Source of the DNA: Candidatus Poribacteria bacterium
GTDB lineage: Bacteria; Poribacteria; WGA-4E; WGA-3G
Length of the DNA stretch: 64,000 bases
Reading direction: 5' to 3'
NCBI GenBank assembly: GCA_965205065.1
Contig: CBDBFT010000001.1
Span: 2,156,836-2,220,835 of the forward strand
Part shown: piece by piece, positions 19,819-53,355 of the stretch
Numbering within the stretch: the first letter of the stretch is position 1
How the letters are laid out: each line of letters starts with the position of its first letter
Made by a program: the position numbers and the translations under genes
Notes under the pieces: model-generated
Databases searched by the model: none
The model's input: only the letters and a program-made list of their open reading frames with translations
What the model was told of the DNA's origin: nothing

Positions 19819-19936
19819 ATGAAGATTAAGTTATTAATTGGGTAATATGCGGGCGGGGAAACCCCGCCCCTACGAAATCTTACTCCTACGATGAGGCATA
19901 TCAGTAGAATTACCTGATTATTTATTTAATCTTCAT
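19819..19936. mobile_element. MITE-like element, family A. 118 bp, perfect 11-bp TIRs ATGAAGATTAA/TTAATCTTCAT, internal GC hairpin GGGCGGGGAAACCCCGCCC.
   Basis: Near-identical copies at 20053-20170 and 28646-28763, and a rearranged copy at about 42230-42393. The empty-site sequence GTCCCTACGGGAC occurs nearby (about 19990, 20225, 20290). Confidence 0.75.
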
Positions 19937-20052
19937 ACGGGAATGAAGAGAGGTGGGGTACACATTCTTCTGCTATAAACATATCGTCCCTACGGGACTT
20001 GGGAGCGGGGTAGGGACGTTAGGGACGTTCTTCTATAAACATTCCGTCCCTA

Positions 20053-20170
20053 ATGAAGATTAAGTTATTAATTGGGTAATATGCGGGCGGGGAAACCCCG
20101 CCCCTACGAAATCTTACTCCTACGATGAGGCATATCAGTAGAATTACCTGATTATTTATTTAATCTTCAT
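20053..20170. mobile_element. MITE-like element, family A, copy 2.
   Basis: Near-identical to 19819-19936 including TIRs. Same flanks, CCCTA / ACGGGA. Confidence 0.75.
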
Positions 20171-20339
20171 ACGGGACTGAAGATAGGTGGGGTACACATT
20201 ATTCTGCTATAAACATATCGTCCCTACGGGACTTGGGATGGGTAGGGACGTTAGGGACGTTAGGGACGTTCTGCTATAAACATTCCGTCCCTACGGGACT
20301 TGGGACTTGAGAGGCTTTCTGCCTGGAAGAATCCTTAAG

Positions 20340-20560
20340 GTTACACCCATAGAAACGATGTTTTCATCCTTCCAATCTTCCCATCTTCCCATCTTCCACT
20401 CTTCCACTCTTCCACTCTTCCACTCTTCCATTCTTCCGGATCGGATCGTTTTACGATTGAGTCTCGTGGGTGCATCCTTCCCTCTTCCATCCTTCCCATC
20501 TTCCATCCTTCCCATCTTCCATCCTTCCCTCTTCCATCCTTCCCATCTTCCACCCATCCT
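20340..20560. repeat. GGAAGG-type minisatellite (reverse-complement orientation CTTCC/ATCTTCC).
   Basis: Direct reading. ORFs 20291..20578, 20307..20564 and 20341..20553 are low-complexity artefacts. Confidence 0.85.
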
Positions 20561-20567
20561 CTGAAAC

Positions 20568-23267
20568 CTATTTAACAACTATTAGTCGTCGAGTCTGTTG
20601 GAATGACTCTGTTGTCAACTGGTAGAAATAGAGTCCACTTGCGACACTTTCACCGAAGGCGTTCTTACCATCCCAATAGGCAGCACGACCTCGGTCTTGA
20701 TAGAATCCTACCGATTGGAAACCGAGTGAAAAGGTTCGGACAACGCTACCTGTTGCGTTATATATCGTGATGGATACGTTGCTGTCTTCTGATAGACGAT
20801 AGGGTATCCACGTCTCTGGATTGAATGGGTTGGGATAGTTTTGTAATAACTCGCTCTGTTTCGGTGTGCCAATGCTGTCGAGTGTGACGGATAGAACAGC
20901 TTCTGCGACACTGGGGGGTGTTACTTCAAAGGTGAACGCGTCAGATGCAATATTACCGTCTGAGTCGGTAACGATGAGTTGCATGGTATCACCAACCTGA
21001 ACGACACTTCGGTAGCTGAGGTCCGCTGTAGCAGCGGCGAAGTAGTTATCCTTCACTTGTGTGGTCATAACGTTGTGCGTTCGCAGGTTTTTGACTGTGA
21101 TGTGATAACCGTCGTATGTCTGTTTACCGTCTAAGTGTCCACTTACGATAAATGCCCAATTCTGCTGCTGTGTTGCGATTTCCGTTGCGCTGGGAGCTGC
21201 AGCTGCGTCAGTTTTGTTGCGCCACTCTGCACCGACGAACGTGACATCGCGATCTGTTGTGACATTGACGATATAACCCTGTCCACCCTCAATTTGAAAT
21301 CCGTTATCCGGAGCGTTTGGTGTCCAACCGATGAACCTTTGGTTATCGGCATCAAGTGCGATGACCATTGTTGAACCTGTCAAACCTGCAAATGCTCTTG
21401 CATTCACCGGTTTCGGTGTTGCTAAAGGTAGCGATAGCATGTTCAAGCCTTTTGACAACTTTAGATTGAATATGTTGGCATACCGGTCGCTGTCTTCCTT
21501 GGTGGCGGGTCTCGCGATAAATCCGTGTTTTCGTCCATCGGCTGAGTTATAGTTCCCCACAACAGAACCGTCCTGATTGATATTCCAACCTTCTGTGCTA
21601 ACACTGCCTGGGAATACCAATGGACGTAGTCCGTACTGTAGTGATCCGACAGAAGTTCGGACGATATCGTCTAATCGTTTGGATCTGCCAACGAGAGTTC
21701 CCACATCGTTGATACCGTGCACAAAAAAGTACTCAAACGATGCAGCTTGGGGTAGGTCAAGGGAAATTATCCTCCCGTTAGGTTGCTGCACAAATGGATG
21801 ATAAACACCTTCATCAGAAATGTAGCTACCCACAATCTGTCCACTTGCATTTATAAAATATGCAAAAGTTTCCTGTGCATCTGTTGCTTCAATGATGATG
21901 TCTCCAGAGAATCCGCGTCGGATACCAGCGTCGTCTATAAAGTGTCCTGTTAGTGCGCCAGTTGCATCACTGATGCCGTATATCTCGGTTTGGACAGCAT
22001 TTGGGTAATCGTATTGTGTCAGTTCACCATTTTCTAAGATGACACCGTGAAACAGACCGTCGCTATCCTGATAGTGTCCGGCAGCTGATCCATCGTTTCC
22101 AAGTGCATAGAAATGCGTTTTCTGAGAGTCTGGATAATCATGAGTGGTAAAGACGCCGGAGATGAGCGTAAAAGCGACCTCTTTTCCAGCGGCATTCCGC
22201 GTGTATCCAGCATAATCGTCAAAGTCGCTACTTGCAGTCACCGCTAAAAAGTCTACACCGGGGACATCAATACTCTCAAAAGTAAAGTTGAGTTCTCCAG
22301 GTGTAGGGGTCGGAACGGGAATGTCTACGCCCGGTTCATCAGTGTCTGTTATAGGTCTTGCGATGAATCCGTGCCTCCGTCCATCTGCTGTTTCATAGTG
22401 TCCAACGATGGATCCATCTTGATTGATATTATATCCTTCTGTGCTAACGCTGTCTGGAACCCTAAGGATCTTTAACCCACCTTGAAATGTACCGACAAGT
22501 GTGCCCGGGAAATCATCAATGCGTTTAGTTCGGGCAACGACAACATTAGAATCGTTGATACCGTGTACAAAGAAGTATTCCAGCTGCGCCGCACCTGGCA
22601 GGTCAAGAGAAACAAATCGGCCCCTCGGTGTTCTGACATAAGGATGATATAAACCGTCAGCATCTATGTAACTTCCGACCATACCACCGCTTGCGTTGAC
22701 GAAATCAGCGAATGTTTCAGTCGCGCCGGGGACTTCAATTATTTCGTCTGCCGAGAACCCGCGTCGAACCCCCGATTCGTCTGTAAAGTTTCCTGTTAGT
22801 GCACCTGTGGCGTCACTAATACCGTATATTTCGGTTTGGACGGAACCTGGAAAATCGTATTGTCGCATCTCACCATTTTCTAAGACGACACCGTGGAACA
22901 GTCCATCGTTATCTTCGTAGTGTCCGGCAGCGTTTCCATTATTACCGAGTGCAAAGAAATATGTGTTTTTTGCATCGGGGAATTCGTAAGTTTTAAAGAC
23001 TCCATCAATGAGGGTGAAGGCGACATCTCTTTCGCCATCAGCACTGCGCGTATAACCTGCATAATCCTCAAAGTCGCTACTTGCAGTAATAGATAGACTG
23101 TCTACACCGGGAACCTCTATCGTTTCAAAAGTGTAGTTATCGCTGATAGAAGCGATAACAGGTTGAACGTTCCCTTGCGCGTCAATGTGCAATGGGAAAA
23201 ATGCATTGAGACACATGAAGAACGTAAACACAAAAAACAGTGAACTGGATTTAATCAAATTTCGCAT
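20568..23267 (-). CDS. Secreted multi-repeat protein with a T9SS C-terminal sorting domain (Por_Secre_tail). Paralog 1 of 2.
   Basis: The C-terminal about 80 aa (LLQNYPNPFNPETWIPYRL...ITIYNATGSVVRTF...YWDGKNAFGESVASGLYFYQL) match the T9SS CTD consensus. N-terminal signal peptide (MRNLIKSSSLFFVFTFFMCLNAFF). Two internal about 300-aa duplicated modules. Start set at the ATG at 23267, which has the RBS AAGGAG. Confidence 0.75.
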   Translation of the reverse strand: MRNLIKSSSLFFVFTFFMCLNAFFPLHIDAQGNVQPVIASISDNYTFETIEVPGVDSLSITASSDFEDYAGYTRSADGERDVAFTLIDGVFKTYEFPDAKNTYFFALGNNGNAAGHYEDNDGLFHGVVLENGEMRQYDFPGSVQTEIYGISDATGALTGNFTDESGVRRGFSADEIIEVPGATETFADFVNASGGMVGSYIDADGLYHPYVRTPRGRFVSLDLPGAAQLEYFFVHGINDSNVVVARTKRIDDFPGTLVGTFQGGLKILRVPDSVSTEGYNINQDGSIVGHYETADGRRHGFIARPITDTDEPGVDIPVPTPTPGELNFTFESIDVPGVDFLAVTASSDFDDYAGYTRNAAGKEVAFTLISGVFTTHDYPDSQKTHFYALGNDGSAAGHYQDSDGLFHGVILENGELTQYDYPNAVQTEIYGISDATGALTGHFIDDAGIRRGFSGDIIIEATDAQETFAYFINASGQIVGSYISDEGVYHPFVQQPNGRIISLDLPQAASFEYFFVHGINDVGTLVGRSKRLDDIVRTSVGSLQYGLRPLVFPGSVSTEGWNINQDGSVVGNYNSADGRKHGFIARPATKEDSDRYANIFNLKLSKGLNMLSLPLATPKPVNARAFAGLTGSTMVIALDADNQRFIGWTPNAPDNGFQIEGGQGYIVNVTTDRDVTFVGAEWRNKTDAAAAPSATEIATQQQNWAFIVSGHLDGKQTYDGYHITVKNLRTHNVMTTQVKDNYFAAATADLSYRSVVQVGDTMQLIVTDSDGNIASDAFTFEVTPPSVAEAVLSVTLDSIGTPKQSELLQNYPNPFNPETWIPYRLSEDSNVSITIYNATGSVVRTFSLGFQSVGFYQDRGRAAYWDGKNAFGESVASGLYFYQLTTESFQQTRRLIVVK

Positions 23268-23525
23268 AATATACTCCTTTTTTGGGACTTTCCTACCAAA
23301 GAACAATAATATCATTAGGTCTATGTTTCCATCGTAACGTTTTTTAAGATTATACCCTTTATGGTGTGAAATGTCAACCTACTGCACACTGAGAGTGTGT
23401 AAAGTTATTGTCACTAAACATTCAATACCTTCACCAATAATAGACATTCCTCTCTTGCATCTTTCCACTCTTCCACCCTTCCATCTTTCCACTCTTCCAC
23501 CCTTCTATCCACTGAGAACTGAAAC

Positions 23526-26189
23526 CTATTTAACAACGATCAACCGTCGGGTTTGTTGGAATGACTCTGTTGTCAACTGGTAGAAATAGAGTCCACTTGC
23601 GACACTTTCACCGAAGGCGTTCTTACCATCCCAATAGGCAGCGCGACCCCGGTCTTGATAGAAACCTACCGATTGGAAACCGAGTGAGAAGGTTCGGACA
23701 ACGCTACCTGTTGCGTCATATATCGTGATGGAAACCTTGCTATCTTCCGATAGACGATAAGGTATCCACGTCTCTGGATTGAACGGGTTGGGATAGTTTT
23801 GTAATAGCGCACTATGCTTCGGTGTGCCAATGCTGTCAAGTGTGATGGATAGAACCGCTTCTGCGATACTCGCGGGAGTTACTTCAAAGGTGAACGCGTC
23901 AGATGCAATATTACCGTTTGTATCGGTTACGGTCACTTCCATAGTATCACCAACCTGCACGACATTTCGGTAACTGAGGTCTGCTGTAGCCGCGGCGAAG
24001 TAGTTATCTTTTACTTGGGTGGTCATAAGGTTATGCGTTCGCAGGTTTTTGACTGTGATGTGGTACCCATCGTATTTATGCTTACCTTCCAAGTGTCCGC
24101 TTACGATAAATGCCCAGACTTCTTTTTGCTTAGATACGGCAGCGGGTGCAGCGGTTATCTCCGATTGATTTGTCCAGGGTGCCCCGACGAATAGAACACT
24201 GCGAGTTTCTGGGACGTTGACAATATATCCTTGTCCACCTTCAATTGTGAATCCATCGTCGGGCGCGCTTGGTGTCCAACCGATGAACCGTTGGTTTTCA
24301 GCATCAAGTGCGATTACCATTGTTGATCCAGCGATTCCCGCGAGTGATTTTGCTGTCATCGGCTGCTGTGTTGCTAAAGGTAGCGACAGCGAGTTCAGAC
24401 CTTTGGTGAGTGTAACGTTGAAGATGTTGCCGAAATTGTCACTTACTGTTTTTTCAGCGAGTCTTGCGATAAATCCGTGTCTGCGTCCATCCGCTGTATC
24501 ATAGTGTCCGACGACAGAACCATCCTGATTGATATTCCAACCCTCCGTGCTAACAGCACCGGGAAACTGCAATTCTTGTAGGTTGAGAGGACTGCCGACA
24601 TAAGTACGTGGAACATCACCGACCTCTTTGGCTCTACCAACGACAGCTCTTGCATTGTTGAGTCCGTGGAGAAAGAAGTATTCCAGGTTTGTTGCGTTTG
24701 GCAGGTCAATAGATAGAAATCTTCCGATTGAACTGCGCATGTATGCATGATATACCCCTGCGGCATCCTGGTAGCTGCCGACGATATGGCCTGTCCAACT
24801 CACAAAATCGGCATAAGTTGCCGATGCACTGGGAGCTTCAACTACTGTATCCCCTGAGAACCCACGACGAACACCAGAGGCATCTATATAACTGCCTGTC
24901 AATGCCCCCGTTGCATCACTTAGACCGTATATCTCGGTTTGAACTGCATCCGGAAAATCGTATCGTCGCAATTCGCCATTCTCTAAGATGACACCGTGGT
25001 ACAAACCATTGCTATCTTTGTAGTGTCCAGCAGCTGTCCCGTCATTACCGAGTGCATAGAAATAGGTTCCCTGCGAGTCAGGATAATCATAAGTGGTAAA
25101 AACGCCATTGATAAGTGTAAAAGCGACATCTTTTTCATCATTAGCATTCCGCATGTTGCCGGCGTAATCAAAAAAGTCGCTACTGGCAGTTACCGCTAAG
25201 AAATCTACACCGGGAACATTAATACTCTCAAAAGTATAGTTGAGTGCGGGGGGCACAACACCGGGTCGCGCTTGTGGAGTCCCCGGTTTCGGTCTCGCGA
25301 TAAACCCGTGTCTACGTCCATCCGCAGAGTCATAATGTCCTACGATAGAGTTGTCCTCATTAACATTCCATCCTTCCGTGCTGACGCTGCCTGGAAACTG
25401 CAATTCTTGTAAGGCGACCGGATTACCGGCATAAGTGCGTGGGACATCACCCGCCGTTTTGGCTCGACCGACAGCAATCAGGGCACTGTTGATTCCATGG
25501 AGAAAGAAGTATTCGAGATTTGCTTCTACAGGAAGGTCGAGTGTTGCAAAACTACCCCCTGGTCCACGCAGGTATGCATGATAATTACCTTCGGTGTCTA
25601 CGTAGCTACCCACGACATTGCCTATCGTGCTTACAAAGTCAGCATAAGTTTCCGTTGCGCCAGGATACGCAATTATTTCATCTCCTGAAAAACCACGACG
25701 CACACCGGCAGCATCCGTAAAATTACCAGTCAGTACACCCGTTGAATCGCTATACCCGTATATCTCCGTTTGGACAGCACCCGGATAATCGTATTGCCGC
25801 AACTCCCCGTTTTCTAATATGACGCCGTGGAAGAGTCCGTCGCTATCTTCGTAGTGTCCGGCTGCGACCCCATTATTACCGAGTGCGTAGAAATAAGTAT
25901 TTTGTGCCTCAGGGAAATCATAAGTTGTGTAAACGCCATCTATGAGTGTAAACGCGACGAATTTTTCACCATCAACACTATGCGTATAGCCTGCGTAATC
26001 CTCAAAGTCGCTACTGGCTGTTAAAGCTAAGAAATCTACACCGGGTACTTCTATCGTTTCAAAAGTATAGTTGTCACTAAGGGATGCTGCAACGTTTTGC
26101 GCTGTAGCGTTTGGTGGAAAAAAGGCATTGAGACATAGAGACATTGAAAACATGAAGAATAGAAAATAGGTTTTAATCAAATTTTGCAT
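23526..26189 (-). CDS. Secreted multi-repeat protein with a T9SS C-terminal sorting domain. Paralog 2, tandem to 20568..23267.
   Basis: Same architecture. The C-terminal 190 aa are nearly identical to the neighbour's. Signal peptide MQNLIKTYFLFFMFSMSLCLNAFF. Confidence 0.75.
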   Translation of the reverse strand: MQNLIKTYFLFFMFSMSLCLNAFFPPNATAQNVAASLSDNYTFETIEVPGVDFLALTASSDFEDYAGYTHSVDGEKFVAFTLIDGVYTTYDFPEAQNTYFYALGNNGVAAGHYEDSDGLFHGVILENGELRQYDYPGAVQTEIYGYSDSTGVLTGNFTDAAGVRRGFSGDEIIAYPGATETYADFVSTIGNVVGSYVDTEGNYHAYLRGPGGSFATLDLPVEANLEYFFLHGINSALIAVGRAKTAGDVPRTYAGNPVALQELQFPGSVSTEGWNVNEDNSIVGHYDSADGRRHGFIARPKPGTPQARPGVVPPALNYTFESINVPGVDFLAVTASSDFFDYAGNMRNANDEKDVAFTLINGVFTTYDYPDSQGTYFYALGNDGTAAGHYKDSNGLYHGVILENGELRRYDFPDAVQTEIYGLSDATGALTGSYIDASGVRRGFSGDTVVEAPSASATYADFVSWTGHIVGSYQDAAGVYHAYMRSSIGRFLSIDLPNATNLEYFFLHGLNNARAVVGRAKEVGDVPRTYVGSPLNLQELQFPGAVSTEGWNINQDGSVVGHYDTADGRRHGFIARLAEKTVSDNFGNIFNVTLTKGLNSLSLPLATQQPMTAKSLAGIAGSTMVIALDAENQRFIGWTPSAPDDGFTIEGGQGYIVNVPETRSVLFVGAPWTNQSEITAAPAAVSKQKEVWAFIVSGHLEGKHKYDGYHITVKNLRTHNLMTTQVKDNYFAAATADLSYRNVVQVGDTMEVTVTDTNGNIASDAFTFEVTPASIAEAVLSITLDSIGTPKHSALLQNYPNPFNPETWIPYRLSEDSKVSITIYDATGSVVRTFSLGFQSVGFYQDRGRAAYWDGKNAFGESVASGLYFYQLTTESFQQTRRLIVVK

Positions 26190-26238
26190 AATATATTCCT
26201 TTCTTGGGTCTTTTTATTTAATGATCAATAACATGCAT

Positions 26239-27048
26239 TTAGAAAGTGCTATTATTTGTCCCTGCAGCCAAACCTGATGTGAACCGCTTCACTGCAGCAA
26301 GCATCTTCACTTCGTCGTCCATATATTCTTCAATTACATTGATGATTGCACTCCCCACAATAACGCCGTCAGCGACTTTTGCAACCTGTCCTGCCTGTTC
26401 AGGTGTTGAAACACCAAACCCGACACTAATCGGTTTATCGGTATGCTTACGCAGTTCAGTTATCATCGGTGCGACTTCGTCAGACAAAGTTGCCCGCGCA
26501 CCTGTTACACCTGTCAATGAGACACAATAGATAAATCCTGTACTCACCGATGCAATACGCTGCATCCGTTCTGGTGAACTTGTCGGAGCGACAAGAAAAA
26601 TGGTTGAGAGATTATAGTACGGAGCCACTTCCAAAAGAGGTTGTGCCTCCTCTGGTGGTAAATCAGGGACGATAACACCGTCAACACCTGCGTCTTGAGC
26701 AGTTTCACAAAACAGTGATTCCCCTATACTGAAGATCGGATTATAGTAACTCATCAGTGCAATGGGAATATCTGTATGCTGACGGAGTGTTTTTACCATC
26801 TCAAGTATCTGTTGCAGTGAGGTACGATGTTTGAGCGCACGTTCGCTGGCACGTTGGATCGTAGGGCCATCTGCTATCGGATCAGAAAAGGGGACACCGA
26901 GTTCTATAAGGTCAGCACCTGCTTCTTCAAGTGCCAGGAGCAGTTTTTCGGTGTGTTCGAGCGTCGGATCCCCCGCACACAAGTAAGGCATAAATGCGCG
27001 CCTGTTTTGCTCGCGGAGAATTTTAAATTTCTTGTCAATTCGATTCAT
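26239..27048 (-). CDS. trpA: Tryptophan synthase alpha subunit.
   Basis: GVPFSDPIADGPTIQ motif. 269 aa. TIM-barrel TrpA family pattern. Confidence 0.85.
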   Translation of the reverse strand: MNRIDKKFKILREQNRRAFMPYLCAGDPTLEHTEKLLLALEEAGADLIELGVPFSDPIADGPTIQRASERALKHRTSLQQILEMVKTLRQHTDIPIALMSYYNPIFSIGESLFCETAQDAGVDGVIVPDLPPEEAQPLLEVAPYYNLSTIFLVAPTSSPERMQRIASVSTGFIYCVSLTGVTGARATLSDEVAPMITELRKHTDKPISVGFGVSTPEQAGQVAKVADGVIVGSAIINVIEEYMDDEVKMLAAVKRFTSGLAAGTNNSTF

Positions 27049-27179
27049 AGATAGGATTTTTTTTTCTACTTACAAGGGACTTGACTAAATTATACGATGT
27101 ATAGAGCGAATTGTCAAGTAGTTTTCTGAGGACACAACAACAACCAAAATTGATTGAAAATACGCAAATACTATGCTAT

Positions 27180-27545
27180 TATAGATGTATGGAAGGATGG
27201 AAGAGGAAGAGGAAGAGGAAGATTGGAAGAGGAAGGTTGGAAGAGGGGAAGAGGGGAAGGATGGAAGAGGAAGATTGGAAGGGTGGAAGAGGGAGATTGG
27301 AAGGATGGAAGGGTGGAAGAGGAAGATTGGAAGAGGAAGATTGGAAGGGTGGAAGAGGGAGATTGGAAGGGTGGAAGAGGAAGATTGGAAGAGGAAGATT
27401 GGAAGAGGAAGATTAGAAGAGGAAGATTGGAAGGGTGGAAGAGGGAGATTGGAAGAGGAAGATTGGAAGAGGAAGATTGGAAGAGGAAGATTGGAAGGTT
27501 GGAAGAGGGAGATTGGAGGAGTGGAAGAGGAAGAATACGGCAGAG
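27180..27545. repeat. GGAAGA/GGAAGG minisatellite (GAAGAGGAAGATTGGAAGGGTGGAAGAGGGAGATTG units).
   Basis: Direct reading. The overlapping ORFs 27111..27416, 27154..27579 and 27185..27556 are artefacts. Confidence 0.85.
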
Positions 27546-27579
27546 TAACAGTTTAAGAGTCTATTTCAGGAGATTTTAG

Positions 27580-28632: not shown

Positions 28633-28645
28633 ACAGTACCATTGC

Positions 28646-28763
28646 ATGAAGATTAAGTTATTAATTGGATAATACGCGGGCGGGGAAACCCCGCCCCTAC
28701 GAAACCTTACTCCTACGATGAGTCATATCAGTAGAATTACCTGATTATTTATTTAATCTTCAT
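28646..28763. mobile_element. MITE-like element, family A, copy 3.
   Basis: Same 118-bp element, with TIRs, between the GHMP kinase and moxR. Confidence 0.7.
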
Positions 28764-28789
28764 CAAATGGTACTAAAACGCAATATCTA

Positions 28790-29818: not shown

Positions 29819-30002
29819 TTCTCACATCATACAGATGAGAACGTTATGAAAAAAGAAAATACTGACCTTGATACTCTTAGGATAGATAGAAGCAAACTCT
29901 CTGTTATATCACTGTTTGATAAATCAGATGATAAAACGTATTGGCTTTCAAAAACACCACAGGAACGCTTAGCAGCACTTGAATTGATGCGGCAAATAAA
30001 CT

Positions 30003-30449: not shown

Positions 30450-30475
30450 GATTTGACGGGCTGAGGTATACGTAA

Positions 30476-31066: not shown

Positions 31067-31073
31067 GATCTAT

Positions 31074-32444: not shown

Positions 32445-32460
32445 TAACGAGGTAGGTTTG

Positions 32461-33198: not shown

Positions 33199-33201
33199 AT
33201 A

Positions 33202-38312: not shown

Positions 38313-38336
38313 ATTTTTCCTTGTTGTTTGTAAGGT

Positions 38337-39410: not shown

Positions 39411-40192
39411 CTCTCTTTAAGACCCTGTGCGATTGCCTGACGGATCTGTTGGATATTCTCTCTTCGGGACCCGGATGTATGAAATACACTGCTGCTGCCG
39501 CCGACCAAAATATCTGCCCCTGCTGCTACCATTTTAGGGATATTTTTGAAACTGACATTTCCATCAACTTCTATCGGTAGTTCAGCACCGTTTTTATCCA
39601 AAAAAGTGCGACATTCCTCTATTTTTCGCAAAGTCGCCGGTACTAATTTCTGTCCAGCAAATCCTGGGTTGACCGTCATAATAAGCACGAAGTCCAACTT
39701 ATCAACAACATACGTTAATGCGGAAAGCGGCGTTGCTGGATTCAAAGCAACACCCGATTTTATACCGTGCCCCTGAATAAGAGATAAAGTCCTATCCAAA
39801 TGGATAGCAGATTCAGCATGGATTGCGATCTGTTGGACACCGATGTTGGCAACTGCTTCCACAAAGAAATCGTTATTGTTTACCATCAAGTGAATGTCAA
39901 AAGCGCAGTCTGTTTTTTGACGTAGTTGTTCAATGAGTGCCAACCCAATCGGCATGTTTGGAACGAAGTGTGCGTCCATCAAGTCAAAATGAAGCAGGTT
40001 TATTCCCGCTTTTTCTAACTCACGTAAATCTTCTTCCAGGTTACAGAGATCAGCACACATCACTGAAGGTGCTATGCTGATATTTTTATCTGCGGGACTA
40101 AGGCTTTGACTCTCATGAGTCGGCAAGATATTACTCCAATCAAATACGGGTTTCTCAAATATTATTATAACATTAATTGAGTAAATTGTCAA
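39401..40192 (-). CDS. rpe: Ribulose-phosphate 3-epimerase family protein, with an N-terminal extension.
   Basis: IAPSVMCADLCNL...HFDLMDAHFVPN matches the Rpe core (IAPSILSADF...DVMDGHFVPN). Confidence 0.7.
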   Translation of the reverse strand: MTIYSINVIIIFEKPVFDWSNILPTHESQSLSPADKNISIAPSVMCADLCNLEEDLRELEKAGINLLHFDLMDAHFVPNMPIGLALIEQLRQKTDCAFDIHLMVNNNDFFVEAVANIGVQQIAIHAESAIHLDRTLSLIQGHGIKSGVALNPATPLSALTYVVDKLDFVLIMTVNPGFAGQKLVPATLRKIEECRTFLDKNGAELPIEVDGNVSFKNIPKMVAAGADILVGGSSSVFHTSGSRRENIQQIRQAIAQGLKERCG

Positions 40193-40195
40193 ATA

Positions 40196-40800
40196 ATGGT
40201 TAGATTAGATGGAATGGGAAGGTTGGAAGAGGGGAAGGATGGAAGAGGGGAAGGATGGAAGAGGGGAAGGATGGAAGAGGGGAAGGATGGAAGAGGGGAA
40301 GGTTGGAAGAGGGGAAGGTTGGAAGAGGGGAAGGTTGGAAGAGGGGAAGGTTGGAAGAGGGGAAGGATGGAAGATGGGAAGGATGGAAGATGGGAAGGAT
40401 GGAAGATGGGAAGGTTGGAAGAGGGGAAGGATGGAAGAGGGGAAGGATGGAAGATGGGAAGGATGGAAGAGGGGAAGGTTGGAAGAGGGGAAGGATGGAA
40501 GAGGGGAAGGTTGGAAGAGGGGAAGGATGGAAGAGGGGAAGGATGGAAGATGGGAAGGATGGAAGATGGGAAGGTTGGAAGAGGGGAAGGATGGAAGAGG
40601 GGAAGGATGGAAGATGGGAAGGATGGAAGAGGGGAAGGTTGGAAGAGGGGAAGGATGGAAGAGGGGAAGGATGGAAGATGGGAAGGATGGAAGATGGGAA
40701 GGATGGAAGAGGGGAAGGTTGGAAGAGGGGAAGGATGGAAGATGGGAAGGATGGAAGAGGGGAAGGATGGAAGAGGGGAAGGGGTTGTTGTATAAAGCAG
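40196..40800. repeat. About 600-bp GGAAGG(A/T)TGGAAGAGGG minisatellite, the largest copy.
   Basis: Direct reading. All overlapping ORFs (40189..40809 and others) are artefacts. Followed by the AGCACAATCAAGGATGAATGTGCT hairpin and a GTGTAAAGTTTTTGTC motif. Confidence 0.9.
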
Positions 40801-41003
40801 CACAATCAAGGATGAATGTGCTACGGCAGTATCAAAATGGTTGAGGTAGGGTGAACGATAATGAAGGATGGGTGTGTAAAGTTTTTGTCACTATAAGTGT
40901 CAATTTTGGGATCTCATAAGCTCTTAATAGTAGTAGGCACTCTCCGAGTGCCGTTGTCCGAAACATTTTACTGCAAAAGCTCTTAATAGTAGTAGGCACT
41001 CTC

Positions 41004-41118
41004 ATGAAGTTTAAATAATTAAACGGGTAATTTCTTGTTTGCATAATGCAGGCACACCATTCTGCTGGCGAGGTTTCCTAACCTCGCCAAATTACCCAAA
41101 TATTTTCTTTAACTTCAT
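41004..41118. mobile_element. MITE-like element, family B. 115 bp, TIRs ATGAAGTTTAAAT.../...AACTTCAT, internal hairpin GGCGAGGTTTCCTAACCTCGCC. Inserted in a palindromic REP-like unit.
   Basis: Flanks GGCACTCTC | element | CCGAGTGCC reconstitute the palindrome GGCACTCTCCGAGTGCC that is seen intact at about 40935. A second copy is at 53241-53355. Confidence 0.65.
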
Positions 41119-41216
41119 CCGAGTGCCGTTGTCCGAAACATTTTACTGCAAAATCAATATGTTTTTTGGTATACTTGAGATATAATACCATTTCTACAGT
41201 AAATTAGGAGAAAAAC

Positions 41217-42224: not shown

Positions 42225-42229
42225 GTTTA

Positions 42230-42393
42230 AAGGTAGTAATACGCGGGCGGGGAAACCCCGCCCCTACGAAACATTACAGGATTACAGGATTTTAGCAGGA
42301 TAAGACAGCGGGCGGGGAAACCCCGCCCCTACGAAACATTACTCCTACGATGAGGCATATCAGTAGAATTACCTGATTATTTATCTAATCTTC
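42230..42393. mobile_element. Rearranged family-A MITE-like copy with a duplicated GC hairpin.
   Basis: Two GCGGGCGGGGAAACCCCGCCCCTACGAAAC cores, then the shared 3' half ending CTAATCTTCAT. The left TIR is missing. Confidence 0.55.
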
Positions 42394-42441
42394 ATCCGAG
42401 TGCCGTTGACTTAAAGGTAGTAGGCACACTCCGTGTGCCGT

Positions 42442-45147: not shown

Positions 45148-45168
45148 ATTGTAACTTTTGCGTCTACG

Positions 45169-46901: not shown

Positions 46902-47218
46902 AATAGTACCTCAACAGAAATTAAAAAATAACTATGAAAGGACAATTACCACGTAAGGAATTATAGCATTTTTTACAGTTTTTATCATCACATTTATCCG
47001 CATAGCCAATAAGACATCTATAACAAGTTGCATTGATGAATGTGTTGCAAAGTTACAAAGAAGCACAATCAGGACTTACGCATTTTTATGAAATGGTGTA
47101 TACTATTTAGCAAGGAAGTTGACTTTTCGCTTGACTTTTACACCCAACAAGATGTAAACTTAATACATATATACATTCAAAATTCACCATAATGTAATTC
47201 TTAGGGAATTGAAGACGC

Positions 47219-47809
47219 ATGAAACATCATTTTTCATATCAGAAACCGCTTGCACTGCTATTATGTTGTATCTTTATACTAATTACGAGTATCCAACCTG
47301 CTGATGCGGGTAAAGGAAATCGGACTTTGTCAATCTCACTGCTTGTATCGGGCTTAGGATTACAAGTCGGTAGCACGTTCCTAAATGCCTCTGCTGAAAA
47401 CAGGTATGAAGACTACCTCTCTGCTGTTATCCAATCCGATATTCAGAGTCAAAAGAGCGATGTTGTCGCTTACAAAAATGCCAGTGTATCAATGTCTCGC
47501 GCAGGATATGGATTTATCGGACTCGCCGTAATCATATCTATTCTTGACCAATTGAGTGAGAGTTCAAAAGACTCGGAGACTGTACCACAACAAGATATGA
47601 ACACCTTGTCCGGAAGAATGGGACAGAATATTTTTAGTTCGTCAAGCCTTTCATATTTAATGGCACACTTAAACACATCTTTTCATCATTCACCTTTTGA
47701 GTATTCAAAGGGACAATATTCAAGGGGTGTTGGTTTGTATCCCTCTTATGCCATTTCTTATGACTGTGAAAGGCAGAGGACAAACCTACAGTTCACGTTC
47801 CGTTTTTAG
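47219..47809 (+). CDS. Hypothetical secreted protein.
   Basis: Signal-peptide-like N-terminus (LALLLCCIFILITSIQPADA). Confidence 0.45.
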   Translation: MKHHFSYQKPLALLLCCIFILITSIQPADAGKGNRTLSISLLVSGLGLQVGSTFLNASAENRYEDYLSAVIQSDIQSQKSDVVAYKNASVSMSRAGYGFIGLAVIISILDQLSESSKDSETVPQQDMNTLSGRMGQNIFSSSSLSYLMAHLNTSFHHSPFEYSKGQYSRGVGLYPSYAISYDCERQRTNLQFTFRF

Positions 47810-47877
47810 GTCAACCGAATATATGAATATTACGAGAAATTTTCAAAGAGGCCATAATTTTCAAAGAGGATATTAGG

Positions 47878-49020
47878 ATGAATTCACACCGTACTATTGC
47901 TCAAACACTATCTCAAAACTTGACTCTGAAAACCGCATCACTGCTATACCTCTCTTTTTTTCTTATTGCTGTTCTATCTGCTGGTTGTACCAATAGTGAA
48001 GACTTTGCCAATCCATTGGATGCTGATAACTTGAAAACAGCAGGTGCACCTGAATTGAAACTTTATGCGGGGGATAAAGAGGTTAGAGTTACTTGGATAG
48101 ATACCGAACAAGAGGGAATAAAGGCATATAAGATATATAGGCGTTCAAGAAGTGACTCAGATGAACCGTTTGCGTTAATTGCTACGGTGGATGCGCCAGC
48201 TAACGAGTTTATTGACACAGATAACATAGAAAATGACCGTCTTGATGAGTTCGGACGACCACTTGCGTATGCGTATCGTATCTCATACATTGACACTAAT
48301 GATGTTGAAACCCCCGATCCGACTAATCCTCCGGGCTCGAATCAAGAACCGTTTCGACATTGGCAGATAGCCACTGTAAAGCCGAGTATTGCACCACCTG
48401 TCCCTGTTGTCACACTTGGTGATCCGGTAGACCTTGCCGTGCATCTATTTTGGAGCGACTACGAATTTCCTAATGATTTTGCTACTTTCCGTGTATACGC
48501 TGTAATAGATGATGGAAAAACTGAGTATCCTGTCTTTAGACATATCGCTGAAATAGAACGAGATGATCAAGGGGTCATTGATAAGGGTTATGCTGACGAA
48601 AATTTCAGTGAGGATGGTGTGACAAAGATATATCGTGTTGCTGCTGTGGATATATTTGGTGTTGAAGGCATTACCACTATTTCTGCGACATCCCCTAATT
48701 TGCCGCCTGCCCCTCCATCAAATGTTCAGGCAGCATATATTTTCCGTTCACTGTTTAACAACAAGTATGATGCTACGATTTCTTGGACTGCAAATACAGA
48801 GCCAGATCTTGCAGGATACCAAATCTTCACCGAAGATGCAGAGGGTAATTTGTTCGTCCGCGGAACAGCGAACCGTTATGAGACAGAAATCACTTTCCCC
48901 GGTGAAGACCCGCCGCCAGGAGGTGAGGAACCTTTTCGAACCTATTATATCACAGCGTATGACAATACGCCTGGACCTGATGGGAAACGCGACCATAGCG
49001 AGATGGTAATGGCAGAATAA
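47878..49020 (+). CDS. Hypothetical lipoprotein with fibronectin-III-like repeats.
   Basis: Lipobox-like LSAGC. Repeated 'VTWIDTE...YKIYRR' and 'ISWTANTEPDLAGYQIF' FN3-like segments. Confidence 0.5.
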   Translation: MNSHRTIAQTLSQNLTLKTASLLYLSFFLIAVLSAGCTNSEDFANPLDADNLKTAGAPELKLYAGDKEVRVTWIDTEQEGIKAYKIYRRSRSDSDEPFALIATVDAPANEFIDTDNIENDRLDEFGRPLAYAYRISYIDTNDVETPDPTNPPGSNQEPFRHWQIATVKPSIAPPVPVVTLGDPVDLAVHLFWSDYEFPNDFATFRVYAVIDDGKTEYPVFRHIAEIERDDQGVIDKGYADENFSEDGVTKIYRVAAVDIFGVEGITTISATSPNLPPAPPSNVQAAYIFRSLFNNKYDATISWTANTEPDLAGYQIFTEDAEGNLFVRGTANRYETEITFPGEDPPPGGEEPFRTYYITAYDNTPGPDGKRDHSEMVMAE

Positions 49021-49077
49021 TATTTATAATTGCTTTATGAGATTAGATCAATAAAGAGGATGTGGGGAGGATATAAA

Positions 49078-50031
49078 ATGCACCTTAGTTTTCGCTTTTT
49101 ATTTGGATTAGTGATCGTTATACTATTAGCAAGTTCACCGCCCAGTTGTTATTTTTCTGCCCAGACTGTCCCTGTTTCGCAGCTTACGACGATTCAGACA
49201 GCGGAACCGATAGGCAAAGGGGGTTCAAACACCTCAATTGGGTTCTTTCAACATTCTGTTGAAAGGGTGCGGCCCGATCCTATCCAAGATGTTGTAATTG
49301 GAGGTTTTGAGAAATCTCACCACGTTTCACTTGAAGTTGAGACATATCTTCTACCTGTCCGGTTTACTTACGGCTTAAGCGACCAACTTGATTTAAATCT
49401 CGGTGCGACTGTCTCTATAGGTGATGTGCATAAAATAGTACACAATTTCTATGATACTGTAAATCCCGAGCTCGCTTCCGACCGCGTTTACGACCAACCC
49501 GTCTATGATGGTATGATTGGACTAAAGTATAACTTAAAACCTGAACGCAATGATGGGTTTCCAAGCATATCTGTTGGCGGAAATTTTTTCTCTGGATTTA
49601 CCGCAGATGACAGACTTAATTCTGACAGGGAATTTCTTGATCATAGTCCAATTGATGGTTATCCTTATGCTGCTATGAACGCCTATTGTGTAGGTACTCA
49701 AAGGTTTCGAAAGTATTTCAAATTCCACGCTGGTGCCGGGGTATACTTATCTTCCAAATCGCTTAGGACGACAGATTCTTTTCCGCTGACGTGGCAGTTG
49801 GGAGGCGAAATCGCAATTGCGGACAACATGTGGTTTGCTGCTGATTACACAAATATCATTCACCATGTAGGAATACATATCTCAAATATTATCGGTCTGG
49901 CATTCCGATATGAAACGTCCAAATCATTGGCATTCCAACTCGGTCTTAACAACCAACCAGGGTTTCATTTCAGTCTGACGTTAGGCGGAGAAAAAGCACA
50001 AGAAGTTGAGGGTAATAAACTACTTTTTTAG
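49078..50031 (+). CDS. Hypothetical outer-membrane beta-barrel protein.
   Basis: Signal peptide (MHLSFRFLFGLVIVILLASS), alternating amphipathic strands and a C-terminal Phe. Start set at the ATG at 49078, which has the RBS GGGGAGG. Confidence 0.5.
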   Translation: MHLSFRFLFGLVIVILLASSPPSCYFSAQTVPVSQLTTIQTAEPIGKGGSNTSIGFFQHSVERVRPDPIQDVVIGGFEKSHHVSLEVETYLLPVRFTYGLSDQLDLNLGATVSIGDVHKIVHNFYDTVNPELASDRVYDQPVYDGMIGLKYNLKPERNDGFPSISVGGNFFSGFTADDRLNSDREFLDHSPIDGYPYAAMNAYCVGTQRFRKYFKFHAGAGVYLSSKSLRTTDSFPLTWQLGGEIAIADNMWFAADYTNIIHHVGIHISNIIGLAFRYETSKSLAFQLGLNNQPGFHFSLTLGGEKAQEVEGNKLLF

Positions 50032-50081
50032 TTAAACCCGTCATGCAAAACAGCACTTGACAAAGCACTAATTTCATATAA

Positions 50082-50543
50082 TTGGCATATAATATGAGAG
50101 CAGTTATACAACGTGTCAAATCAGCAAGTGTGAAGGTAGATGGTGAACTCGTTTCTGAAATTGGAGCGGGTTTACTTATTTTTCTCGGCATTGCACATGA
50201 TGATAGTCAAGCAGAGATAGATTATATTGCAAACAAAGCGGCACATTTGCGTATCTTTGAAGATGCTGATGGAAAAATGAACTGTTCGCTTCTTGACACC
50301 GGTGGTTCAGCACTCGTCGTATCACAATTTACGTTATATGGAGATTGCCGCAAAGGTAGACGTCCAAGTTTTATCCATGCTGCCCGTCCAGAAACAGCAA
50401 ACGCACTTTATGAGGCGTTTATCGCTGCCCTAAAACAGCAGAACATACAAACTTATGGTGGGACTTTTCAAGCGATGATGGATGTGGAATTGATTAACGA
50501 TGGACCGGTTACAATTCTATTGGATAGTGATAAGCAGTTTTGA
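50082..50543 (+). CDS. dtd: D-aminoacyl-tRNA deacylase.
   Basis: [15 protein letters not shown]...LLIFLGI and SQFTLYGD motifs. 153 aa. Confidence 0.85.
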
Positions 50544-50581
50544 ACCAAACATGAGCAAGGCTCTAAGACACAAAACATAAA

Positions 50582-51439
50582 ATGCAACATTCTGAGTACA
50601 TTAATACAATCAAACAAGGGGACTGCATTGCGTTGATGTCAGAAATGCCACCTGCATGTGTTGATCTTGTCATAACAGACCCCCCTTTTGCTATTGACTT
50701 TAAAGCTACTCGGCACAACTATAATCGTACAGGAGACCGCGTTCTTCAAGGTTATAATGAAATTGAGGGAAGTGACTACTTAACTTTTACACTTGATTGG
50801 CTTTCAGAAGCAACAAGAGTGTTAAAAGAATCTGGGAGCATGTATATCTTCTCAGGTTGGAATTATCTGAAAGACCTCTTGATTGCTATTGATGAATGTA
50901 AACTTATAACAATCAACCATCTCATTTGGAAATATCAGTTTGGGGTTGTTACCAAGCGAAAGTACGTGACGTCTCACTATCATTGCCTTTTCTTATGTAA
51001 AAACGACAAAAAACGACAATTTTACCCGTACTGCCGTTTTGATAAAGATACAAAGACTGAAACTGGTGGATCTGCACACTATAAAGACAAGGAGGATGTC
51101 TGGGAAATCAAGAGAGAATATTGGCAAGGTGCTATAAAAACACCGACTAAACTGCCAGCTGAACTCATTGAAAAAATACTTGATTATTCCAGTCAGAAGG
51201 GTGATGTTGTTTTGGATCCGTTTTTAGGTTCTGGACAAGTCGCAGTCGTTAGCAAAATGAAGGGTCGTCATTATATAGGTTTTGAGATTGTGCCGGAATA
51301 TTATGAATTTGCTTGTAAGAGAGTTGAATCAGGAAAGTATTTAATTCATAAAACAGAAGCTGAATGGATTTCTTTTGAAAATAACGGACTTGATGACACA
51401 ACGGACATTTTTGGTATGGCGTTGAATCAACAATCATAA
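50582..51439 (+). CDS. Beta-class DNA N6-adenine/N4-cytosine methyltransferase, apparently an orphan.
   Basis: Motif IV LVITDPPFA near the N-terminus and motif I DPFLGSGQ near the C-terminus (the beta permutation). Confidence 0.75.
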   Translation: MQHSEYINTIKQGDCIALMSEMPPACVDLVITDPPFAIDFKATRHNYNRTGDRVLQGYNEIEGSDYLTFTLDWLSEATRVLKESGSMYIFSGWNYLKDLLIAIDECKLITINHLIWKYQFGVVTKRKYVTSHYHCLFLCKNDKKRQFYPYCRFDKDTKTETGGSAHYKDKEDVWEIKREYWQGAIKTPTKLPAELIEKILDYSSQKGDVVLDPFLGSGQVAVVSKMKGRHYIGFEIVPEYYEFACKRVESGKYLIHKTEAEWISFENNGLDDTTDIFGMALNQQS

Positions 51440-51478
51440 TTCAGATTATGCAAATTTCATGAAAAGGAGGACAAACAA

Positions 51479-52279
51479 ATGACGCAAGTTGTTCCCTTAC
51501 GATACGACACCGCTTTTAAAAAAGCGTTCAGCCAACCAGAGATCTTCTGTCACTTTGCTGAAGATGTCTTAGGTATCAAATTCCATACCGATGAGGTACA
51601 TCGCGGTTACAAATTTCTTAAACCCATCGGGCAGGTTGATATTGAATACGATCTGTTTGCCGAGGATCCTGAATCTCGTATTGTGGTTGAGATACAACAC
51701 GTTAAAGAACATCATTTCTATGATCGTTTCCTATATTATCATCTCATCAATCTCGTGGAACAGGTAAAAAACAGCAAGGCATACCAGTTCGATCGGACAG
51801 TTTATACGATTGTTGTCTTAACGAGTCCTTATAGTGAAAACGAAATTGACTTTAGTGTGGCTATCACGGATTTCAACCCTATCAACGAATTTAACCGCAA
51901 AGTCGATGTATATCCACATCAACTTGTATTTGTGGTGCCTCGTATGCTCAACGATAAGACACCAACCGGTATAAAAGCGTGGTTGGAACTTGTACTGGAT
52001 TCTCTGGATGGAGAGATGGACGAGGGTCGCTACAACTCACCGATTTTTGAACAGGTGATTGATGCGGTTAAAATTGACAACATTTCGCCTGCTGAGCGTA
52101 GGATACTTAAGGATGAAGAGTCTTGGGAAGATACCTTAATTGACGTAACGCAGCGGGAAACGCAGCGTGAAAAAGAGACGATTGCCCGCGCACTAATTAG
52201 CGAAGGGGTAAGCACCGAAGTCATCGCAAGAGCAACAGGTATCCCGGAAATTGACATCGAAAAACTGAAGCAATCATAG
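51479..52279 (+). CDS. Rpn/YhgA-family PD-(D/E)XK recombination-promoting nuclease / putative transposase.
   Basis: N-terminal RYDTAFKKAFSQPEI (compare RpnA HDAVFKQFL), DIEYD...VVEIQH core and a C-terminal GVSTEVIARATGIPEIDIEKL tail. Confidence 0.65.
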   Translation: MTQVVPLRYDTAFKKAFSQPEIFCHFAEDVLGIKFHTDEVHRGYKFLKPIGQVDIEYDLFAEDPESRIVVEIQHVKEHHFYDRFLYYHLINLVEQVKNSKAYQFDRTVYTIVVLTSPYSENEIDFSVAITDFNPINEFNRKVDVYPHQLVFVVPRMLNDKTPTGIKAWLELVLDSLDGEMDEGRYNSPIFEQVIDAVKIDNISPAERRILKDEESWEDTLIDVTQRETQREKETIARALISEGVSTEVIARATGIPEIDIEKLKQS

Positions 52280-52293
52280 ACATTGAGGTGTGC

Positions 52294-53139
52294 TTATGGA
52301 TCTCTTTTGTGAAACGCATCAATCTTTTCCTGCAAAAACTTTACACAGTATGGAATCTGTTCTTCGGTAAGTCCATGCAGAACAACTGCACCATCATAAC
52401 CGCACTCGCTTAGTAAACGGAGATATTGGTCGTAATCCAGCAGTCCTGTTCCTGCAGCAAGATGTCCCGCTTCTCCATCCCGGTCCAAATCTTTCGCGTG
52501 TGCAAGGACAATGTCTTTTCCTAAGAGCGTAAAAGCCTCGTCAAGAATATCCCGCATCTGTGGTAATTCACCTTTATGGAATATGTTTGCCCCATCCATA
52601 ACTACCTTCAGGTAAGGTGATTGCATTTCATCAAGTAGGCGGCGTGCCTTCTTTGCGGAGTCAATCACATTGGAAACTTCCGGTTCCATTGCCAACGTAA
52701 CTCCATATTCCTCAGCAATCTCTAACGCTTTCTCCATTGACTGAACAAGATCATGCCATGCGTCTATTGCGTTGTTATCAGGATGAGCCCGCCACATACT
52801 GTGTGGGTTGCGTGAACCAGTACATAACGTTATCACTGATGTTCCAAGTGGCTTACACTGTCCTGCAACATAACGCAATTTATCTAAACCCGCTTCCCGT
52901 TTTTGAACATTTGGGTCAATCATATTGTATGTTCCAGATAGCGCAACGATTTTTATTCCTCTATCCTCTATCGCTTGACGAATCTTGTCAGTAGATGTTC
53001 CACCTTTTGAAACATGGTACTGTAAGAAATATACCTCTTGTGTCACCACAGAATCAAGCGTTTCTTCTAAAGTCTCTCTATGAATAGTACCTTCCATAAG
53101 ACCAATGTTCATACGTCTCTCCAAATTTGTTAGTAGCAC
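52294..53139 (-). CDS. Sugar-phosphate isomerase/epimerase (xylose-isomerase-like TIM barrel).
   Basis: Family-level pattern: length and conserved His/Glu/Asp positions. Moderate. Confidence 0.55.
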   Translation of the reverse strand: MLLTNLERRMNIGLMEGTIHRETLEETLDSVVTQEVYFLQYHVSKGGTSTDKIRQAIEDRGIKIVALSGTYNMIDPNVQKREAGLDKLRYVAGQCKPLGTSVITLCTGSRNPHSMWRAHPDNNAIDAWHDLVQSMEKALEIAEEYGVTLAMEPEVSNVIDSAKKARRLLDEMQSPYLKVVMDGANIFHKGELPQMRDILDEAFTLLGKDIVLAHAKDLDRDGEAGHLAAGTGLLDYDQYLRLLSECGYDGAVVLHGLTEEQIPYCVKFLQEKIDAFHKRDP

Positions 53140-53240
53140 TTATTATTAACCCATAGGTGTAAAGTTAAGATAGCTTAGAAGCTCTGAGGAATCACTCTGA
53201 ATCCTTATGGTTATACGGGTTTTCTTCTTTTCAGTCCCTA

Positions 53241-53355
53241 ATGAAGTTAAAATAATACTTTGGGTAATTTGGCGAGGTTAGGAAACCTCGCCAGCGGGGG
53301 AATGAACCTGCATCATGGGAACAGACAATTACCGAATTAATTATTTGATCTTCAT
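53241..53355. mobile_element. MITE-like element, family B, copy 2.
   Basis: ATGAAGTTAAAATAA...GGCGAGGTTAGGAAACCTCGCC...TTTGATCTTCAT, flanked by CCCTA / ACGGGAC like the family-A copies. Confidence 0.65.

Follow-up and report, generated by a model that had tools for sequence, protein, structure and literature searches.

Characterized members of the IS630/Tc1/mariner group insert almost exclusively at TA dinucleotides, which are duplicated upon insertion (ISY100, PMC2170065; Mos1, PMC5481204). ISY100 of Synechocystis transposes in cut-and-paste fashion, with cleavage exactly at the 3' ends of the element and strand transfer at the duplicated TA (PMC2170065), and in the strand-transfer complex of Mos1 the target DNA is severely bent, with flipped bases (PMC5481204). 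Miniature transposable elements with inverted repeats (MITEs) derived from IS630 are known, namely, Correia and RUP (PMC2817692). Insertion sequences (ISs) that target repetitive extragenic palindromes (REPs), some of them entering the loop, have been listed in the IS3, IS110, IS4, IS256 and IS5 families, not in IS630 (PMC1525189); the named cases are IS1397 and ISKpn1 (IS3), ISPpu9/10, ISPa11 and IS621 (IS110), and ISRm22 (IS4) (PMC1525189). Here we analyze a 64-kb stretch of the genome of a Candidatus Poribacteria bacterium (contig CBDBFT010000001.1, positions 2,156,836 to 2,220,835; hereafter, the window, with coordinates counted from its first nucleotide) that carries two families of short elements, A and B. 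Judging from sequence comparison, these are very probably MITEs of an IS630-family IS that are inserted on the dyad of hairpins and palindromes, usually with duplication of the single center base, and not at TA.

Hairpin-borne MITEs and their partner IS

The window contains five full-size elements (115-118 bp) and a truncated one, with the ends ATGAAG...CTTCAT, all of them inserted into loops of perfect hairpins. Family A is represented by three 118-bp copies on the plus strand. Copy A1 (19819..19936) is inserted in the hairpin GTCCC-TA[element]AC-GGGA, and copy A2 (20053..20170), identical to A1 in 118 of 118 positions, is the product of a 234-bp tandem duplication (19788..20238). The two matched 217-bp copies of this duplication (19788-20004 and 20022-20238), which start 234 bp apart, are 98% identical, and each contains one filled and one empty GTCCC/GGGAC hairpin. 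Because A1 and A2 both lie inside the tandem units, they represent a single insertion event. Copy A3 (28646..28763), which matches A1 in 114 of 118 positions, is intergenic, with a GHMP-kinase gene on one side and a MoxR gene on the other, and occupies the hairpin AGTACCATT-GC[element]CA-AATGGTACT. The two 115-bp copies of family B, B1 (41004..41118, plus strand) in the hairpin GGCACTC-TC[element]CC-GAGTGCC and the oppositely oriented B2 (53241..53355, minus strand) in CAGTCCC-TA[element]AC-GGGACTG, are 82% identical to each other and ~60-70% identical to family A. The host hairpin of B2 is itself the center of another MITE, the family-C carrier described below. The truncated element (42236..42395, plus strand) is a decayed family-A copy that has lost the left terminal inverted repeat (TIR) along with the hairpin arm on that side and contains its internal GC hairpin module in duplicate; the right junction CTTCAT|CC-GAGTGCC is intact (here and below, the bar marks the edge or position of the element).

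An earlier note on this DNA had reported these families at 19819, 20053, 28646, 41004 and 53241 with the same sizes, perfect 11-bp TIRs and central GC-rich hairpins. All copies are where it placed them, and the GC-rich hairpins are present; the separate counting of 19819 and 20053 does not hold, given the tandem duplication, and the rearranged copy it placed at 42230 is indeed a family-A remnant, but with homology starting at ~42236. In family A, the 11-bp TIR is perfect, and an imperfect inverted repeat extends it to ~28 bp. The terminal pattern ATGAAGWTNAA-N11-GGTAAT identifies 11 true termini in the window, compared to 0.16 expected in shuffled sequence. This terminal module is all that families A and B have in common; their interiors are different GC-rich hairpin cassettes. 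In single-strand folding, the host hairpin and the element form one long hairpin, consisting of the host stem, 2 nt and the TIR stem, with z-scores of -5 to -7, and an Rfam search of the elements detected no RNA family at the gathering thresholds. The elements are bounded by TIRs and, at 115-118 bp, are too short to encode a protein; they are also dispersed, with five and a half copies per 64 kb, and B2 is present in the window and absent from a related strain (locus L154). The elements are polymorphic between close strains and can therefore serve as strain markers, in agreement with the earlier note.

The full-length counterpart was identified in locus L017 (OY762266.1, 2046-3286), where inverted ends 1241 bp apart enclose a single open reading frame (ORF) for a 384-aa protein with the likely start MAKPHK. 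The MITEs and the 1241-bp IS share a 28-bp terminal module that consists of ATGAAG, 16 AT-rich bases and GGTAAT. In the alignment of 9 MITE ends and 8 IS ends, ATGAAG and TAAT are invariant, and the preceding GG is present in nearly all; the right end of B2 and an IS end in locus L125 are identical in 27 of 28 positions. The homology between MITEs and IS stops directly after GGTAAT, beyond which the MITE interior is an unrelated hairpin cassette. Because the same 28-bp module bounds both, families A and B can be assigned as MITEs of the 1241-bp IS, in support of the earlier view of these elements, which cannot encode a protein, as non-autonomous and mobilized in trans. Two ISs of the window, one of the IS4 family (55022-56338) and an ordinary IS630-like one (59164-60216), were rejected as partners, neither having ATGAAG ends, and locus L033 was rejected as a second copy of the partner IS after tblastn found no transposase there.

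The predicted partner transposase is an IS630-family DDE enzyme. It matches the Pfam domain DDE_3 (1.9e-22) together with the helix-turn-helix (HTH) domains HTH_32, HTH_29 and HTH_23, and scores 174.3 bits against the NCBIfam model of the IS630 family, NF033545 (cut-off 100). A sequence search of the PDB with the transposase yielded nothing meaningful. An AlphaFold2 model has a mean predicted local distance difference test (pLDDT) score of 63.8, with the catalytic core mostly at 65-94, and in a Foldseek comparison of this model against the PDB the seven best matches were to the mariner Mos1 transposase (E-values 2e-4 to 7e-4), followed by retroviral integrase cores. The DDE motifs YQDEFGF, IQDN and NPIE have aligned counterparts in the ordinary IS630-like transposase of the window, to which the protein is 23% identical; across 29 sequences, D191, E192 and N331-P332-I333 are invariant, and D273 and E334 are nearly so. 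Relative to the ordinary transposase, the partner enzyme contains ~23 additional residues (PQIRPFAKPTPPKWTGKPSNKIGKLAKLP) between the second D and the E, a K/P-rich segment that forms a loop in the model. We speculate that this insertion is a candidate determinant of altered target capture.

The transposase has 652 homologs, nearly all of 384 aa, and many of the metagenome contigs are exactly 1241 bp long, which is the signature of a collapsed multi-copy repeat. Look-up of three transposase proteins yielded 20 independent genomic copies of the IS, each exactly 1241 bp long; a metagenome scan with the transposase gave no confirmed locus. Within each of two metagenomes (ERZ18545484 and ERZ25069191), the IS copies encode identical transposases and hence appear to have been active recently. 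Outside the ORF, the IS has only 71 bp before and 15 bp after, so that a guide RNA of the IS110 type is excluded for lack of space. When 185,579 species genomes were scanned for the end pattern, more than 117 stretches were detected and, among the 80 matches listed, almost all were in Poribacteria metagenome-assembled genomes (MAGs); the partner IS is common in Candidatus Poribacteria, and the family is present in closed chromosomes such as OY762266.1, OZ244889.1 and OZ244616.1. In an Anaerolineales MAG (locus L027, 1828-1925), the hairpin GCGGACT-T|T-AGTCCGC harbors a 98-bp element bounded by the same ends, and two Chloroflexi MAGs (L060 and L064) have one matching end each. Poribacteria are sponge symbionts, and these Chloroflexi-assigned matches reflect either transfer between symbionts or mis-binning.

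Insertion rule and target duplication

To define the insertion rule, every element with two ends in the window and the fetched loci was collected and deduplicated by its flanks, resulting in 97 sites (78 MITEs and 19 ISs), with random positions in the same loci as the control. Inverted repeats of at least 5 bp surround the insertion at 78 of the 97 sites, compared to 2.7% of the random positions. The element is separated from the stem by exactly 2 nt on both sides (2|2 register) at 69 sites, compared to 0.14% of the random positions, and the bases directly to its left and right are identical at 72 sites (chance 0.253, p = 8e-24). The rule is as strict for the IS alone (17/19 in register and 15/19 with the same base) as it is for the MITEs. 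Most copies thus sit at a fixed position inside palindromes, as in the REP-targeting ISs. The IS630 hallmark of insertion into a duplicated TA is missing: TA is found on both sides at a single site among the 97, so that the canonical TA duplication was rejected, and the empty loops need not contain TA (for example, TCC). The window's ordinary IS630-like IS was dropped as a TA control given that its junctions are not clean.

The host hairpins differ widely in sequence. The stems include at least 26 different 5-bp words, and the center base is A at 19 sites, G at 14, T at 14 and C at 10; in the strand-asymmetric loop TCC/GGA, the IS is found in both orientations (TC|CC and GG|GA). Because both stems and loops vary in sequence and all four center bases are used, recognition by structure, rather than by sequence, appears to be involved, and the palindrome-center rule across these sites is in line with the hairpin-recognizing transposase envisaged in the earlier note. 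A universal rule of cutting 2 nt from the stem, whatever the loop size, is contradicted by the 5-nt loop TTAAT, which is filled as TTA|AAT.

Empty forms of the same hairpins are present in the window, which confirms the earlier claim of insertion at palindrome centers with empty sites nearby. The hairpin GTCCCTACGGGAC (GTCCC-TAC-GGGAC) is found at 19986..19998, 20220-20232 and 20287-20299. The hairpin GGCACTCTCCGAGTGCC (GGCACTC-TCC-GAGTGCC) is found at 53534..53550 (minus strand) and 40936-40952, with a variant at 42423-42439. The copy at 40936 belongs to the unfilled tandem counterpart of the unit that hosts B1 (40917..40975, plus strand), which serves as the empty-site reference for B1.

Such pairs reveal the size of the target duplication. 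The empty loop is 3 nt long in 49 of 52 GTCCC-NNN-GGGAC hairpins, 27 of 44 hairpins of the REP-like CAAACT/AGTTTG family, 11 of 12 GGCAC.C hairpins and 8 of 8 GCGCTT hairpins. In the B1 pair, compared together with 24 flanking nt to the left and right, the filled unit TC[B1]CC (40976) differs from the empty GGCACTC-TCC-GAGTGCC (40917) by the element and one C; likewise, GTCCC-TAC-GGGAC becomes TA[element]AC, with the center base doubled, and three more empty/filled pairs in locus L101 differ by one additional A each. The exact empty sites expected under different duplication sizes, extended by 9 nt of context to the left and right, were sought in 955 kb; those expected under a 1-bp duplication occurred 21, 14, 5, 5, 3 and so on times. 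Empty forms predicted by zero duplication were found only for hairpins with 4-nt loops, and an AT duplication (with the element running from GAAG to CTTC) was rejected because its predicted empty sites were found zero times for all 77 sites tested. Given the 3-nt empty loops and the one extra base in the filled members of the pairs, the usual duplication is 1 bp, the center base of the loop. The earlier note had seen no target-site duplication, which holds insofar as there is none of 2-9 bp, but each filled site in these pairs carries exactly one base more than the empty one; the comparison of empty and filled sites that it proposed does show a difference by the element, plus this one duplicated base at the center of the loop. 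Its diagnostic, by which a 2-9 bp duplication would point to a DDE-type element, does not apply here because the DDE-type element in question produces 1 bp.

Weighing the evidence and the alternatives

Several observations weigh against this reading. All the data come from MAGs and metagenome contigs; within the window there is no copy of the partner IS, which we infer to be present in this genome, and the structural model of the transposase is of moderate quality (mean pLDDT 63.8). At the A3 locus, the MITE is missing from three 90%-identical relatives, as are the hairpin arms, and the hairpin-only state was not found there among the relatives compared (these three and the sister strain L118). 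About a quarter of the sites (25/97) lack the same base on both sides; some of these split even palindromes midway (GT|AC, TT|AA and AG|CT), and others lie in 4-nt loops, such as TC|CT in GGCGAGGTT-TCCT-AACCTCGCC, for which insertion with a duplication of zero bp would fit just as well. To our knowledge, a 1-nt stagger has no precedent among DDE transposases, and the reading does not account for action of the transposase on the two strands of a hairpin or cruciform.

The sites with even symmetry suggest a variant of the preferred reading in which the element is inserted exactly on the dyad and the duplication follows from parity, 1 bp for an odd loop and 0 bp for an even one, instead of from a fixed 1-nt stagger. 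We regard this variant as rather unlikely, yet several observations speak for it. Empty hairpins with 4-nt loops are common, with 29 occurrences of GGCGAGGTT-TCCT-AACCTCGCC and 23 of GTGCGGTT-AGGA-AACCGCAC; this AGGA/TCCT hairpin lies inside family-B MITEs, and its filled forms are AG|GA or TC|CT. Perfect even palindromes are split without duplication, and the 5-nt loop TTAAT gives TTA|AAT. However, rare 3-nt variants of the same loops (TCT and AGA, 2-5 copies) would, with a 1-bp duplication, give the same filled sequences, the 4-nt loops are seldom filled (1-2 of ~50), and one 4-nt loop apparently was hit off-center with a 1-bp duplication (L050, TTA|AT). Furthermore, mismatched flanks can arise by other means: nine contigs (L144-152) read TT|AC and another with the same right flank (L153) reads AA|AC. 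The presence of both forms at one locus indicates recombination between IS copies, so that chimeric flanks are documented.

The hairpin arms might also travel with the element or arise from the insertion itself, for example, by inverted duplication of the target, which would explain why the locus between the GHMP-kinase and MoxR genes is short in the three 90% relatives, devoid of the MITE as well as of AGTACCATT and AATGGTACT. This explanation is highly improbable, given that at least 26 stem words surround the same element, that empty hairpins abound (49 GTCCC-NNN-GGGAC and 27 CAAACT/AGTTTG with 3-nt loops), and that the tandem units, empty and filled, are identical over 24 nt on each side. 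The host hairpins are, moreover, parts of other repeats, namely, REP-like units and the centers of family-C MITEs. The family-C carrier of B2 (53152..53407) has the TIR CATAGGTGTAAAGTTAAG, the same end type as that of the IS4-family IS at ~54893-56351, and family C is also seen at 20333-20352. Families A and B preferentially target the hairpin at the center of family C, CAGTCCC-TAC-GGGACTG, and the result is nested elements. In the related strain L154, a family-C MITE lies between the AP-endonuclease and glycerate-kinase genes without B2, and there the intact GTCCC-TAC-GGGAC stands beside a right flank identical to that of the B2 locus.

In the sister strain L118 (98% protein identity), a family-B element (11055-11207) occupies the right junction of A3, CTTCAT|CAAATGGTA; it is 5'-truncated, with an internal 24-bp segment triplicated, and replaces the family-A element. 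Comparison with the window shows turnover at one site, suggestive of a hot spot where elements are replaced or inserted anew, and the different families at this site appear compatible with excision followed by re-insertion as well as with recombination. Because the relatives either lack the hairpin as well or contain a family-B element, the A3 locus does not help in establishing the size of the duplication.

Another alternative holds that insertion is random or follows the TA rule and that the hairpin pattern is one of survivorship at tolerated places. REP-like repeats and MITE centers are probably neutral sites, and the window contains another nested IS (the IS4-family IS at ~54893-56351, in a REP-like palindrome). 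Nevertheless, we consider this very improbable: precision to the single nucleotide is not something that selection can generate (69/97 sites in the 2|2 register, against 0.14%), 10 of 10 and 9 of 10 recently copied ISs in the two metagenomes with identical transposases are in hairpins, and only one of the 97 sites has TA flanks.

The weakest alternative, the assignment made in the earlier note, regards the elements as derivatives of IS200/IS605, akin to palindrome-associated transposable elements (PATEs), with subterminal hairpins, moved in single-stranded form by a Y1 (HUH) transposase without duplication; it fits the absence of a 2-9 bp duplication, the hairpins found everywhere and the weak Y1_Tnp and TnpB (OrfB_IS605) matches near some IS copies (L138 and L129), but is extremely improbable given the 28-bp TIRs, the DDE IS630-family IS bounded by the same ends (NF033545, 174 bits), the symmetric, variable flanks with no conserved 4-5 nt target at one end, the observed 1-bp duplication and the occurrence of both orientations within one hairpin type. 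The search for tnpA or tnpB recommended in that note led elsewhere: the one full-length element that was recovered with these ends has a gene for a DDE transposase. Separately, a small Y1_Tnp-like ORF (L138, 1010-1402) and a TnpB (OrfB_IS605) gene (L129, from 4125) are located close to copies of the IS in contigs of Poribacteria. Conceivably, the REP-like hairpins that serve as targets are themselves related to IS200/605 or to REP-associated tyrosine transposases (RAYTs).

Under the preferred reading, in which an IS630-family enzyme inserts families A and B on the dyad of a hairpin, the transposase would bind the element ends through its N-terminal HTH domains and, as in Tc1/mariner/IS630, use DDE chemistry to excise the element. 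The target would be captured already distorted, as an extruded hairpin or cruciform or as the readily bent center of a palindrome, and the two 3' ends would be joined to phosphates that flank the apex base at a distance of one nucleotide from each other; repair would then generate the 1-bp duplication. A more far-reaching proposal is that a clade of IS630/Tc1-mariner dropped the TA target and instead reads hairpin or cruciform apices regardless of their sequence, with a 1-bp duplication, and that the ~23-aa insertion is responsible. We advance this only tentatively, as a possibility that falls slightly short of being the probable one.

The comparison with described systems places these elements within IS630 and, at the same time, sets them apart. 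They resemble IS630/Tc1/mariner in that a ~1.2-kb IS with a single ORF, HTH and DDE_3 domains and ~28-bp TIRs spawns MITEs. They differ in targeting the apex of hairpins or palindromes of variable sequence, with a 1-bp duplication and TA at 1 of 97 sites, and the enzyme differs from the ordinary IS630-like transposase in its ~23 additional amino acids between the second D and the E. Thus, sequence and fold fit the family, whereas its hallmark of target and duplication fails, so that these elements stand apart within IS630. Specific insertion into repetitive extragenic palindromes is shared with the REP-targeting ISs. However, each of those depends on a single REP family in its host, implying that sequence is recognized, whereas here many unrelated stems are targeted, with a 1-bp duplication; IS1397 duplicates 3-4 bp, and the members of IS110 rely on a guide RNA together with a DEDD recombinase.

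Nezha elements, intergenic cyanobacterial MITEs of ~120-170 bp that have TIRs in common with ISNpu3 and are described with flanking direct repeats (PMC3184786), are similar in being intergenic MITEs that share TIRs with a full-length IS. The elements described here have no sequence relationship with Nezha and come from a different host, Poribacteria; hairpin-loop targeting is not reported for Nezha. The likeness to PATEs and to REP/RAYT (REPIN) systems consists in the central role of hairpins, the absence of a long duplication and the REP-like appearance of the target hairpins, which could themselves be elements of the PATE/REP type. In contrast, PATE/REP systems lack TIRs, rely on a Y1 HUH enzyme that acts on single strands and use a fixed short motif, none of which is true of families A and B.

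Genomic context and implications

The closest homologs of the proteins encoded in the window are from Candidatus Poribacteria, and the neighboring genes encode proteins with type IX secretion system (T9SS) sorting domains, a multihaem cytochrome with tetratricopeptide (TPR) repeats and a sigma-54 activator. On these grounds, a filamentous cyanobacterial source with Nezha-like MITEs, or with Elhai's small dispersed repeats, was rejected. For three proteins of the window, look-ups of the exact sequence retrieved no record. A very large array of ~144 30-nt CRISPR repeats lies beside a type III-A (Csm) operon (1-9470 and 10489-17877). The operon encodes Cas10 with an HD domain, the RAMP proteins Csm3/4/5 and a Csm2 protein fused to an N-terminal cold-shock (CSD) domain, and is preceded by a gene for a D12-class adenine methyltransferase. 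Directly downstream of the cas operon is a short second CRISPR array that bears a tRNA: tRNA-Arg(TCT) (18056-18131) is located exactly between two repeats (CTTTTAATCGCACCAGTTTGGAATAGAAAC), in the position of a spacer (18013-18160).

The window is also rich in other repeats. Long tandem arrays of an 8-bp unit similar to TGGAAGGT, on both strands, are located at 9673-10270, 20350-20560, 23440-23520, 27200-27550 and 40100-40800; these arrays are intergenic, and some are crossed by spurious ORFs. The hairpin repeat AAGAAGCACAATCAAGGATGAATGTGCTAC, dispersed or in tandem, with unit spacing of 118 and 150 bp, is found at 18700-19270, 9583-10310 and 40759-40861. The IS4-family IS sits in a REP-like palindrome (TGGGTTTCGTGCCTCAACCCA on each side) that is itself enclosed in a TIR-bounded carrier (TTAGACGTGAGTTTGATAA...), and this entire 1.65-kb nest of IS, palindrome and carrier (54772-56421) is absent as a whole from L154. 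The ordinary IS630-like IS, with a 350-aa transposase (59072-60236), and a gene annotated as a PD-(D/E)XK 'transposase' (51479-52279) are likewise missing from the syntenic contig L154 and, from this comparison, are evidently strain-specific insertions.

No report on MITEs of Poribacteria, on hairpin-targeting IS630 elements or on a 1-bp duplication was found in the literature, with incomplete coverage that did not include ISfinder. Annotation pipelines and MITE finders that demand a target-site duplication of at least 2 bp will overlook these elements. The system should be tractable: its protein is 384 aa long, its ends measure 28 bp and the hairpins it targets are short. If the proposal holds, it would be a new way for a DDE transposase to capture its target, in effect, a natural structure-guided integrase, and would imply that target capture in the Tc1/mariner/IS630 fold, the source of widely used genetic tools, can be rewired. 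With these elements, IS630 would join the families known to home to extragenic palindromes, and such insertions would explain the nested, repeat-in-repeat build-up of Poribacteria genomes.

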